Assembly (NCBI GenBank): GCA_032718475.1
Contig: JAUCBJ010009044.1
Span: 1-64,000, forward strand
Source: Nemertoderma westbladi
Lineage: Eukaryota; Animalia; Xenacoelomorpha
Reading direction: 5' to 3'
DNA length: 64,000 nucleotides
The translations under genes and the position numbers were made by a program. Below the pieces are notes generated by a model that made no database searches, was not told the origin of the DNA, and worked only from the letters and a program-made list of their open reading frames with translations. Positions 8,111-26,100 of the stretch are shown here, piece after piece. Each line of letters starts with the position of its first letter. Position 1 is the stretch's first letter.

Positions 8111-11100
8111 TCATCCCATGACGTCCTTTCTTTTCTGTTTGTTCAGAGACAGAAGTAAGCTGATATAGGAAGTTAACAAGTCGTCCATTTTGTATCCCTA
8201 AATAGGTAAAAGTATAAATTATTTCATAAAAATTATAAATATCATAATCATATAACAAATGGTCTGCAGTTTATATTATTTTATTTTATATTAATTGAGA
8301 ATTCGCGATTTGATTTCACCTAATATTGATGACATTAACTATACGAATATTGTGAGTTATATATATATAATAGTAGGAAGACGAGACATTATGTCATAGA
8401 TTCGATTTTAATATAGCCGCAACGATTTAGGACATCTCATCATCATAATCTCTCGATATCTCCCATAAACCCCACAATAACAGGACAATTATTTCAATAA
8501 TGCGCTGTCATTCAAATGCCAGAATGCGAATTTAAACTTACCGCTATCTAGTACGAATTAAGAAATCGTAAGTCATCGAAACAGCTTCTATTATCAACAA
8601 GAGTGATAAAGTGATAAAAGTAAGTTTGATACCAAAAGGTTCGGGCGCAGAAGGTTCAGAACCCAATTAATAAATTGACATGACAGGCTACTGAAAATAC
8701 CAGGGAGAGCCAATAATGGAAATGCTGGAAATGGCTTAATTATTGACGTCATTGTATAACTAAACTCACCAATGAGGTTTCGCATAGAAGTTTACTGCCT
8801 CTTACGAGATTCCCGATTGTAATATGGAAATATGTTAACCCGCTGCTCCAGTTACTAATCTTAGTGAAAGGGTGCACCTAAATGGGGAGTTTGAAAAAAA
8901 TACAAAATTATACAAAGGGTGCACCTAAATGGGGAGTTTGGAAAAAATACAAAATTATACAAAGGGTGCACCTAAATGGGGAGTTTGGAAAAAATACAAA
9001 ATTATACAAAGGGTGCACCTAAAGGGGGAGTTTGGAAAAAATACAAAATTATACAAAGGGTGCACCTAAATGGGGAGTTTGGAAAAAATACAAAATTATA
9101 CAAAGGGTGCACCTAAATGGGGAGTTTGGAAAAAATACAAAATTATACAAAGGGTGCACCTAAATGGGGAGTTTGGAAAAAATACAAAATTATACAAAGG
9201 GTGCACCTAAAGGGGGAGTTTGGAAAAAATACAAAATTATACAAAGGGTGCACCTAAATGGGGAGTTTGGAAAAAATACAAAATTATACAAAGGGTGCAC
9301 CTAAATGGGGAGTTTGGAAAAAATACAAAATTATACAAAGGGGCACCTAAATGGGGAGTTTGGAAAAAATACAAAATTATACAAAGGGTGCACCTAAAGG
9401 GGGAGTTTGGAAAAAATACAAAATTATACAAAGGGTGCACCTAAAGGGGGAGTTTGGAAAAAATACAAAATTATACAAAGGGTGCACCTAAATGGGGAGT
9501 TTGGAAAAAATACAAAATTATACAAAGGGTGCACCTAAAGGGGGAGTTTGGAAAAAATACAAAATTATACAAAGGGTGCACCTAAATGGGGAGTTTGGAA
9601 AAAATACAAAATTATACAAAGGGTGCACCTAAATGGGGAGTTTGGAAAAAATACAAAATTATACAAAGGGTGCACCTAAATGGGGAGTTTGGAAAAAATA
9701 CAAAATTATACAAAGGGTGCACCTAAATGGGGAGTTTGGAAAAAATACAAAATTATACAAAGGGTGCACCTAAAGGGGGAGTTTGGAAAAAATACAAAAT
9801 TATACAAAGGGTGCACCTAAAGGGGGAGTTTGGAAAAAATACAAAATTATACAAAGGGTGCACCTAAATGGGGAGTTTGGAAAAAATACAAAATTATACA
9901 AAGGGTGCACCTAAATGGGGAGTTTGGAAAAAATACAAAATTATACAAAGGGTGCACCTAAATGGGGAGTTTGGAAAAAATACAAAATTATACAAAGGGT
10001 GCACCTAAATGGGGAGTTTGGAAAAAATACAAAATTATACAAAGGGTGCACCTAAATGGGGAGTTTGGAAAAAATACAAAATTATACAAAGGGTGCACCT
10101 AAATGGGGAGTTTGGAAAAAATACAAAATTATACAAAGGGTGCACCTAAATGGGGAGTTTGGAAAAAATACAAAATTATACAAAGGGTGCACCTAAATGG
10201 GGAGTTTGGAAAAAATACAAAATTATACAAAGGGTGCACCTAAATGGGGAGTTTGGAAAAAATACAAAATTATACAAAGGGTGCACCTAAATGGGGAGTT
10301 TGGAAAAAATACAAAATTATACAAAGGGTGCACCTAAATGGGGAGTTTGGAAAAAATACAAAATTATACAAAGGGTGCACCTAAATGGGGAGTTTGGAAA
10401 AAATACAAAATTATACAAAGGGTGCACCTAAATGGGGAGTTTGGAAAAAATACAAAATTATACAAAGGGTGCACCTAAATGGGGAGTTTGGAAAAAATAC
10501 AAAATTATACAAAGGGTGCACCTAAATGGGGAGTTTGGAAAAAATACAAAATTATACAAAGGGTGCACCTAAATGGGGAGTTTGGAAAAAATACAAAATT
10601 ATACAAAGGGTGCACCTAAATGGGGAGTTTGGAAAAAATACAAAATTATACAAAGGGTGCACCTAAATGGGGAGTTTGGAAAAAATACAAAATTATACAA
10701 AGGGTGCACCTAAATGGGGAGTTTGGAAAAAATACAAAATTATACAAAGGGTGCACCTAAATGGGGAGTTTGGAAAAAATACAAAATTATACAAAGGGTG
10801 CACCTAAATGGGGAGTTTGGAAAAAATACAAAATTATACAAAGGGTGCACCTAAATGGGGAGTTTGGAAAAAATACAAAATTATACAAAGGGTGCACCTA
10901 AATGGGGAGTTTGGAAAAAATACAAAATTATACAAAGGGTGCACCTAAATGGGGAGTTTGGAAAAAATACAAAATTATACAAAGGGTGCACCTAAATGGG
11001 GAGTTTGGAAAAAATACAAAATTATACAAAGGGTGCACCTAAATGGGGAGTTTGGAAAAAATACAAAATTATACAAAGGGTGCACCTAAATGGGGAGTTT

Positions 11101-23100: not shown

Positions 23101-26100
23101 GGGGAGTTTGGAAAAAATAGAAAATTATACAAAGGGTGCACCTAAATGGGGAGTTTGGAAAAAATAGAAAATTATACAAAGGGTGCACCTAAATGGGGAG
23201 TTTGGAAAAAATACAAAATTATACAAAGGGTGCACCTAAATGGGGAGTTTGGAAAAAATACAAAATTATACAAAGGGTGCACCTAAATGGGGAGTTTGGA
23301 AAAAATACAAAATTATACAAAGGGTGCACCTAAATGGGGAGTTTGGAAAAAATACAAAATTATACAAAGGGTGCACCTAAATGGGGAGTTTGGAAAAAAT
23401 ACAAAATTATACAAAGGGTGCACCTAAATGGGGAGTTTGGAAAAAATACAAAATTATACAAAGGGTGCACCTAAATGGGGAGTTTGGAAAAAATACAAAA
23501 TTATACAAAGGGTGCACCTAAATGGGGAGTTTGGAAAAAATACAAAATTATACAAAGGGTGCACCTAAATGGGGAGTTTGGAAAAAATACAAAATTATAC
23601 AAAGGGTGCACCTAAATGGGGAGTTTGGAAAAAATACAAAATTATACAAAGGGTGCACCTAAATGGGGAGTTTGGAAAAAATACAAAATTATACAAAGGG
23701 TGCACCTAAATGGGGAGTTTGGAAAAAATACAAAATTATACAAATAATTACAATTAAATATGGTTGAAGACAGACTACGTAAAATCTACAACTATTGTGA
23801 TACTCAACCTAATATTGTATCGTTAATTAATTAATTAATTAATTATATTAAAATAATGTATATATAAAATAAATCGACGGGGCAGTTTTAATGATTATTT
23901 CGAAATACTACTATATATAAATATATATATATATATATATATACTATATATATACTATATATATATACTATATATAAATAAATTCGACATACTACAGTAC
24001 TCCCGTACTGTTCGTACTCCCGTACTGTTCGTGCTCCCGTACTGTTCGTGCTCCCGTACTGTTCGCACTCCCGTACTGTTCGTGCTCCCGTACTGTTCGT
24101 GCTCCCGTACTGTTCGCACTCCCGTACTGTTCGTGCTCCCGTACTGTTCGTGCTCCCGTACTGTTCGCACTCCCGTACTGTTCGTGCTCCCGTACTGTTC
24201 GTGCTCCCGTACTGTTCGTGCTCCCGTACTGTTCGTACTCCCGTACTGTTCGTGCTCCCGTACTGTTCGCACTCCCGTACTGTTCGTGCTCCCGTACTGT
24301 TCGTACTCCCGTACTGTTCGTGCTCCCGTACTGTTCGCACTCCCGTACTGTTCGTGCTCCCGTACTGTTCGTGCTCCCGTACTGTTCGTGCTCCCGTACT
24401 GTTCGTGCTCCCGTACTGTTCGTGCTCCCGTACTGTTCGCACTCCCGTACTGTTCGTGCTCCCGTACTGTTCGTGCTCCCGTACTGTTCGTGCTCCCGTA
24501 CTGTTCGCACTCCCGTACTGTTCGTGCTCCCGTACTGTTCGTGCTCCCGTACTGTTCGTGCTCCCGTACTGTTCGTGCTCCCGTACTGTTCGTGCTCCCG
24601 TACTGTTCGTGCTCCCGTACTGTTCGTACTCCCGTACTGTTCGTACTCCCGTACTGTTCGTGCTCCCGTACTGTTCGTGCTCCCGTACTGTTCGTGCTCC
24701 CGTACTGTTCGCACTCCCGTACTGTTCGTGCTCCCGTACTGTTCGTGCTCCCGTACTGTTCGTACTCCCGTACTGTTCGTGCTCCCGTACTGTTCGTCCT
24801 CCCGTACTGTTCGTGCTCCCGTACTGTTCGCACTCCCGTACTGTTCGTACTGTTCGTACTCCCGTACTGTTCGTGCTCCCGTACTGTTCGTGCTCCCGTA
24901 CTGTTCGTGCTCCCGTACTGTTCGTGCTCCCGTACTGTTCGCACTCCCGTACTGTTCGTACTGTTCGTACTCCCGTACTGTTCGTGCTCCCGTACTGTTC
25001 GCACTCCCGTACTGTTCGTACTCCCGTACTGTTCGTACTCCCGTACTGTTCGTACTCCCGTACTGTTCGTACTGTTCGTGCTCCCGTACTGTTCGCACTC
25101 CCGTACTGTTCGTACTCCCGTACTGTTCGTACTCCCGTACTGTTCGTACTCCCGTACTGTTCGTACTCCCGTACTGTTCGTACTCCCGTACTGTTCGTGC
25201 TCCCGTACTGTTCGTGCTCCCGTACTGTTCGTGCTCCCGTACTGTTCGTGCTCCCGTACTGTTCGTGCTCCCGTACTGTTCGTACTCCCGTACTGTTCGT
25301 ACTCCCGTACTGTTCGTGCTCCCGTACTGTTCGTACTCCCGTACTGTTCGTGCTCCCGTACTGTTCGTGCTCCCGTACTGTTCGTGCTCCCGTACTGTTC
25401 GTGCTCCCGTACTGTTCGTGCTCCCGTACTGTTCGTGCTCCCGTACTGTTCGTGCTCCCGTACTGTTCGTACTCCCGTACTGTTCGTGCTCCCGTACTGT
25501 TCGTGCTCCCGTACTGTTCGTGCTCCCGTACTGTTCGTGCTCCCGTACTGTTCGTGCTCCCGTACTGTTCGTGCTCCCGTACTGTTCGTGCTCCCGTACT
25601 GTTCGTGCTCCCGTACTGTTCGTGCTCCCGTACTGTTCGTGCTCCCGTACTGTTCGTGCTCCCGTACTGTTCGTGCTCCCGTACTGTTCGTGCTCCCGTA
25701 CTGTTCGTGCTCCCGTACTGTTCGTGCTCCCGTACTGTTCGTACTCCCGTACTGTTCGTGCTCCCGTACTGTTCGTGCTCCCGTACTGTTCGTACTCCCG
25801 TACTGTTCGTGCTCCCGTACTGTTCGTGCTCCCGTACTGTTCGTACTCCCGTACTGTTCGTGCTCCCGTACTGTTCGTACTCCCGTACTGTTCGTGCTCC
25901 CGTACTGTTCGTGCTCCCGTACTGTTCGTGCTCCCGTACTGTTCGTCGCTCCCGTACTGTTCGTGCTCCCGTACTGTTCGTACTCCCGTACTGTTCGTAC
26001 TCCCGTACTGTTCGTGCTCCCGTACTGTTCGTGCTCCCGTACTGTTCGTGCTCCCGTACTGTTCGTACTCCCGTACTGTTCGTACTCCCGTACTGTTCGT

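Follow-up and report, generated by a model that had tools for sequence, protein, structure and literature searches.

Which 3' splice site is used when the end of an intron and the beginning of its exon have been copied in tandem several hundred times? The question is raised by a myosin VIIa (MYO7A) gene in a 64,000-nt stretch of DNA from Nemertoderma westbladi (GenBank assembly GCA_032718475.1, contig JAUCBJ010009044.1, positions 1 to 64,000), which was analysed over its full length and is referred to here as the window. On its minus strand, a minisatellite of 47-bp units (8867-23744) repeats the acceptor of the penultimate MYO7A exon in 314 copies. Four features of a 'mirage' minisatellite that can be tested on the sequence were found, namely a unit that spans the intron/exon boundary, retention of AG/GT (the slash marks the splice junction), a homogenised interior with a divergent edge unit, and an intact reading frame; on this basis we class the array as a mirage. 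We estimate with a probability of about 0.7 that this holds and that the spliceosome uses the last copy, most likely because the exon is defined from a strong donor located 108 nt downstream.

Tandem Repeats Finder (TRF) places the array at 8867-23744 with a period of 47, 316.1 copies and 98% matches, an assembly gap included. Cut at the acceptor, the array gives 314 copies, of which 98 precede the gap and 216 follow it in transcript order. The gap itself consists of 100 N (19005-19104), the conventional sign for a gap of unknown size, and indel-bearing units are clustered beside it; given its position inside the array, 314 copies and 14.9 kb are probably a minimum. Each unit comprises 36 nt of the intron end, with a putative branch-point motif, a T tract and TTTAG, followed by the first 11 nt of the exon, and TAG/GT is kept at the copy spacing in 314 of 314 units. 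Of the 314 copies, the one at 8877 alone is continuous with the exon. An earlier sequence-only reading had described more than 300 identical 3' splice sites over 15 kb, each with the pyrimidine tract, TTTAG and the first 11 exon bases, of which the most distal alone continues into the exon. Copy number, unit make-up and the single productive copy were all borne out, while the identity was slightly overstated: the 47-nt consensus is matched by 266 units, and the 48 variant units are grouped in local runs along the array. No exact match to the 47-nt unit was found in the metagenome contigs.

The last copy also carries a private base, as that reading had noticed. At 8894 (A on the plus strand) the transcript has a C>T change that occurs in 1 of 314 units and lengthens the T run from 6 to 7, with pyrimidines still at 16 of 21 positions. 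Could this base be a selected mark of the genuine acceptor? The data do not support this: a mismatch in an end unit is present in 6 of 8 other parsed arrays, a count that TRF end-points can inflate, and the edge units of amphioxus mirages likewise carry private bases and escape homogenisation (PMC3087553).

The gene model comprises 17 minus-strand exons, from 49484 to 8111, which were delineated by tblastn with four homologues and by reading of the boundaries. Joined through the last copy of the array, they give one open frame of 927 aa without stop or frameshift, and the best matches of the product among the 156 proteins compared are to MYO7A, at 60-62% identity. The 16 non-terminal exons measure 96-256 nt, and 3 of the 17 exons start with GT. 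The penultimate exon (8770-8877) is 108 nt long with phase 0-0, encodes part of the second FERM domain and is followed by a GTGAGT donor at 8769; it shares 34 of 35 residues with the myosin VIIa chain 5mv9_A, and, judging by this conservation, it is probably essential. It is preceded by an exon of 96 nt (32924-33019), which ends in CAG and has the donor GTTATT, and is followed by the last coding exon (8111-8197) with the natural stop. The host intron (8878-32923) spans 24,046 nt in this model, in agreement with the 24 kb stated earlier, and shrinks to 319 nt when its arrays are collapsed to a single unit.

The intron itself is not where homologues have theirs. Among 80 orthologue loci, 27 contain an intron in this region, 50 do not (mostly transcripts) and 3 were unreadable; in 27 of the 27 intron-bearing loci the intron lies 12 nt upstream of the site observed here, and we therefore regard the host intron as a lineage-specific position at a CAG/GT site. 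The four intervening codons are retained in the exon, so that the 12-nt shift looks like the loss of one intron and the nearby gain of another. Birth of the intron from the 47-bp repeat was considered and dropped, because the 5' end of the intron bears no likeness to the unit by eye. In a FastTree phylogeny of 63 sequences, from which 49 of the 80 loci had been omitted for ORFs below 700 aa and 2 of the 33 proteins chosen for short matches, the protein forms a long branch that groups with none of the sampled protostomes, chordates or cnidarians, at weak support values of 0.71-0.82.

What would happen if one of the upstream copies were used? Each of the 313 decoys would lengthen the exon such that it contains a stop (313/313, each N being treated as A where a unit lies beyond the gap), which agrees with the earlier statement that every decoy is non-productive. 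Measured back from the last junction, the stop is at 65 nt with the nearest decoy and at 91 nt with the second; for decoys 1-3 as a whole the distance is 65-138 nt. Skipping of the 108-nt exon, by comparison, is in frame. Decoys 1, 2 and 3 would give predicted exons of 155, 202 and 249 nt, within the 96-256 nt range of the gene; with decoy 4 (296 nt) and all farther ones this range is exceeded, such that only 3 of 313 decoys fall within it.

These sizes are the basis of the reading we favour. The GTGAGT donor at 8769 has a leave-one-out score of 9.6, where the 16 real donors span 2.1-11.9, whereas the GTs within the unit score -6.0 and -2.6 and TAG/GTGCAC scores 4.6 (with a matrix built from only 16 sites). 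U1 bound to the GTGAGT donor would pair across the exon with the nearest acceptor, and some 310 decoys would be too distant from any good donor. Because of the exon size range, and because the remaining copies, by these scores, appear to lack a good donor nearby, the competitors would fall from 313 to about three, the nearest decoys, from which a low-level leak into stop-containing products may occur. Between these three and the last copy, proximity, exon enhancers or the extra U may decide. The array presumably originated by tandem duplication, probably at a 3-nt microhomology, since a T run of 3 nt stands at both of its ends, and would have grown by slippage or unequal exchange, by which the interior was homogenised while the edge copy kept its private base. 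We consider it likely that the array is not a device but cargo that is tolerated where the genome is very rich in repeats; tandem arrays, many of them unrelated to it, occur throughout the window (39 TRF rows). The sequence-only reading had offered 'extreme' exon definition as one of two explanations; exon definition fits the anatomy, with the donor 108 nt downstream, but the adjective goes too far, with only those three decoys in the size range and a class of arrays that has already been described.

Several observations weigh against this picture. Exon definition alone does not set the real site apart from decoys 1-3, whose sequences deviate from it by at most 1-2 bases, and the predicted RNA accessibility of the real site and of the nearest decoys is equal. 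Published mirages have few copies, 3-7 in the amphioxus cases considered, Adh3 aside (PMC3087553, PMC3902484). In globin experiments cited in PMC1557585 the proximal duplicated site was used, and the arrays of 6-16, CBS intron 13 and ABCA7 leak to nearby copies (PMC1557585, PMC5954066). The array placement, finally, is not simply random: of 14 arrays, 7 either span a junction or come to within 50 nt of it, where 2.7 are expected (P about 0.01, with a threshold set after seeing the data). When only arrays that cross a junction are counted over the modelled span, the figure is 3 of 14 versus 0.96 expected (P = 0.06), and an enrichment of junction-spanning arrays is not established.

RNA structure was examined as a further selector. 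An 8-nt palindrome lies across AG/G and is predicted to pair with the neighbouring unit, with a z of -5.3 relative to plain shuffles. We discarded this candidate, as the accessibility of the real site does not exceed that of eight decoys and 7% of 300 unit-shuffled tandem controls fold equally well.

How do other explanations fare? The array could act as a leaky allele of the ABCA7 type, in which a substantial part of the transcripts is spliced to the nearest decoys or skips the exon in frame, so that the length of the array tunes the dose of full-length myosin VIIa. The three decoys within the exon-size range are nearly identical to the real site, their stops lie at 65-138 nt before the last junction, and the skipped exon would leave the frame intact; in ABCA7, moreover, splicing at the second unit has been seen, as has exon skipping, which rises with the length of the variable number tandem repeat (VNTR) (PMC5954066). 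Nevertheless, selection would probably act against heavy loss of an exon that has 34 of 35 residues in common with vertebrate myosin VIIa, and amphioxus mirages yield normal mRNA (PMC3087553, PMC3902484), such that we regard this explanation as unlikely. It is less probable still that no splicing problem is being solved, the allele having recently been disabled by the array or the two sides of the gap having been mis-joined, the latter a case that the sequence-only reading had named. The array is very homogeneous and hence young, the 100-N gap lies within it, and the exon behind another array of the gene, with a 67-bp unit, was not found in the window. Against this, the 17 exons hold no stop or frameshift, and from one side of the gap to the other the exons keep the order and phase seen in homologues, with none lost or overlapping. 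The two sides also share the unit, its orientation and an A>C variant (13/98 and 19/216 units); for these reasons the join is probably right, and even if it were wrong, 216 copies would remain contiguous with the real exon.

The other explanation offered by the sequence-only reading was a stepwise, recursive removal of the intron, in which joining of the upstream exon to a decoy would rebuild a CAG/GT donor, from which a further splice to the last copy would yield the correct mRNA. The geometry it pointed to stands, with AG/GT in 314 of 314 units, and recursion would account for the large size of the array. Its description of the regenerated donor as weak is correct in terms of U1 pairing (5 of 11 matches, versus 6-8 in 16 of 16 real donors), less so by the matrix, where the score of 5.7 exceeds 4 of the 16 real donors and lies inside the low end of their range. 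Both acceptor-side arrays of the gene, in addition, precede GT-starting exons, of which the 17-exon model has three; this is a post hoc count with n = 2. Yet the regenerated donor lacks the +4 A that is present in 15 of 16 real donors and is weaker than the exon's own donor on both scales (5/11 versus 7 U1 matches; 5.7 versus 9.6), and the GT of the unit falls within the palindrome with its predicted pairing to the neighbouring unit. The AG/GT is inherited from the first (Val) codon of the exon, and an initial GT is also found in 3 of 17 ordinary exons; the site is private and nearly homogeneous, the introns of 27 of 27 orthologue loci, none from a close relative, being located 12 nt upstream, and the decoys of a 29-bp array in the same gene read AG/AT. 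The same CAG/GT junction is moreover present in the correct mRNA, where its use must be avoided, and in human cells the exon junction complex represses such regenerated sites (PMC6224609). A ratchet point requires a cryptic exon followed by a donor of its own, shows ultraconservation, and its regenerated donor is generally the stronger one (PMC8605326). Finally, recursion would leave the choice of the last acceptor unsolved. We thus find stepwise removal poorly supported and give it a very small chance. An equally slim prospect is that the array corrects itself: with the intron at a lineage-specific CAG/GT site, a mis-join to any of the 313 decoys would regenerate a usable donor and be re-spliced to the true acceptor, which would remove the cost of decoys and permit growth to at least 15 kb. 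If this were true, acceptor mirages would expand preferentially before GT-starting exons, satellite growth being licensed by recursive splicing; re-splicing rescue, if shown, would be a new link between the two.

Is the mirage reading supported by other arrays in the same gene? Three further junction-derived arrays were found, on donor and acceptor sides, and the 47-mer is the largest junction-derived member of what is a local habit. A donor-side mirage of 33-bp units in 16.5 copies (42890-43433, minus strand) has the in-frame donor in its first copy; its decoy donors are identical to the real donor from -8 to +8, which resembles F7. A small acceptor-side mirage of 29 bp and 2.6 copies (42294-42368, minus strand) has the genuine AG/GT next to decoys with AG/AT, and the genuine exon starts with GTAAAG, a more donor-like start than that of the 47-mer; the decoys of the 29-bp array start with ATAAAG. 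The third array (67 bp, 71 copies, 49804-54579, minus strand) consists of the last 13 codons of an exon and the start of its intron, and matches the PPSWLELQ exon end of MYO7A. Its ends are divergent; most copies carry GTAAAT and the last ones GTGAGT, such that the decoy donors are weaker. The remainder of this exon was not found in the 54.6-64 kb part of the window, and array and exon may have been driven apart by insertions of mobile elements.

Apart from these, the host intron contains a second satellite of 17 bp in 526 copies (24000-32878), which starts about 45 nt after the donor and is not junction-derived. Several of its frames run without stop over about 3000 codons, probably as a by-product of the unit sequence. 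Between the 3' ends of two genes lies an array of 64 bp in 26 copies (5623-7302), without private variants in 25 parsed units. One of these genes is convergent to MYO7A (1-5224, plus strand) and has exons with VWC domains (PF00093); an array of 31 bp in 123 copies ends shortly before an acceptor of this gene. At the other end of the window, inside the presumed MYO7A intron, two long ORFs parted by a stop (59309-64000, plus strand), the first with a DUF1759 domain (E 4e-8), presumably belong to a long terminal repeat retrotransposon of the BEL/Pao type. An element of 1.37 kb (57482-58853) has perfect 21-nt terminal inverted repeats beginning with TTAA and internal 162-bp repeats, and thus resembles a miniature inverted-repeat transposable element; its target site we take to be of the piggyBac type.

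How does the array compare with known systems? The closest are the mirages of amphioxus (Adh3, the globins BflGb6 and BflGb9, troponin C and PGBD5; PMC3087553, PMC3902484), which are likewise tandem copies of intron/exon boundaries, on the acceptor side in BflGb6. Their units of 10-160 bp include the 47 bp found here, splice signals are kept in the copies, the edge unit escapes homogenisation, and duplication can affect donor as well as acceptor boundaries. The array described here differs in size, with at least 314 copies and 14.9 kb as compared to 3-7 copies in the cases considered, and in its host, which lies outside the sampled chordates.

Arrays of similar length are known on the donor side. 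The ABCA7 intron-18 VNTR reaches about 427 units and 10.7 kb, has the splice dinucleotide in each of its hundreds of units, lies flush with the exon, and use of a neighbouring unit leads to a frameshift and a stop; it differs in its donor position, in a 25-bp unit without exon part, and in that leak and exon skipping have been shown by reverse transcription PCR (PMC5954066). The 37-bp VNTR of F7 intron 7 and the arrays of 6-16, CBS intron 13, LAMIN B2 and PDGF also contain identical pseudo-sites derived from an exon boundary, in that case on the donor side, with up to about 25 copies and with the site in use being the first transcribed, whereas here it would be the last (PMC1557585). In these human arrays the exon-adjacent site is the sole or the main one: F7 relies on it exclusively, and in 6-16 and CBS intron 13 the two copies that follow it are spliced as well (PMC1557585). 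Read by analogy, the 47-bp array mirrors on the acceptor side what the F7 and ABCA7 VNTRs are on the donor side. CBS 844ins68 offers a duplicated acceptor junction of which the distal copy is chosen; it has two copies only, and the choice depends on G runs between the sites (PMC1802585, PMC2630376), in place of which the RNA strand of the 47-bp unit has C and U runs. Ratchet points and RS-exons share an AG followed by GT inside a long intron, but the known ones are single, conserved and strong sites that depend on a cryptic exon. In humans, 3.6% of ordinary exons likewise rebuild a donor, which mostly stays unused (PMC8605326, PMC6224609).

The literature searched, which left most subscription papers outside, yielded no acceptor-side array as large as this one; its rank as the largest acceptor-side case is thus not established. 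Rather than a new splicing mechanism, the array is likely a very large example of a known, tolerated type of repeat. If it is indeed a tolerated mirage, it provides a natural and extreme test of 3' splice-site choice: more than 300 acceptors that are nearly the same, and of which every one carries a pyrimidine tract and a putative branch motif, would be transcribed before the right one, which would favour exon definition over a first-come use of splice sites in this animal.

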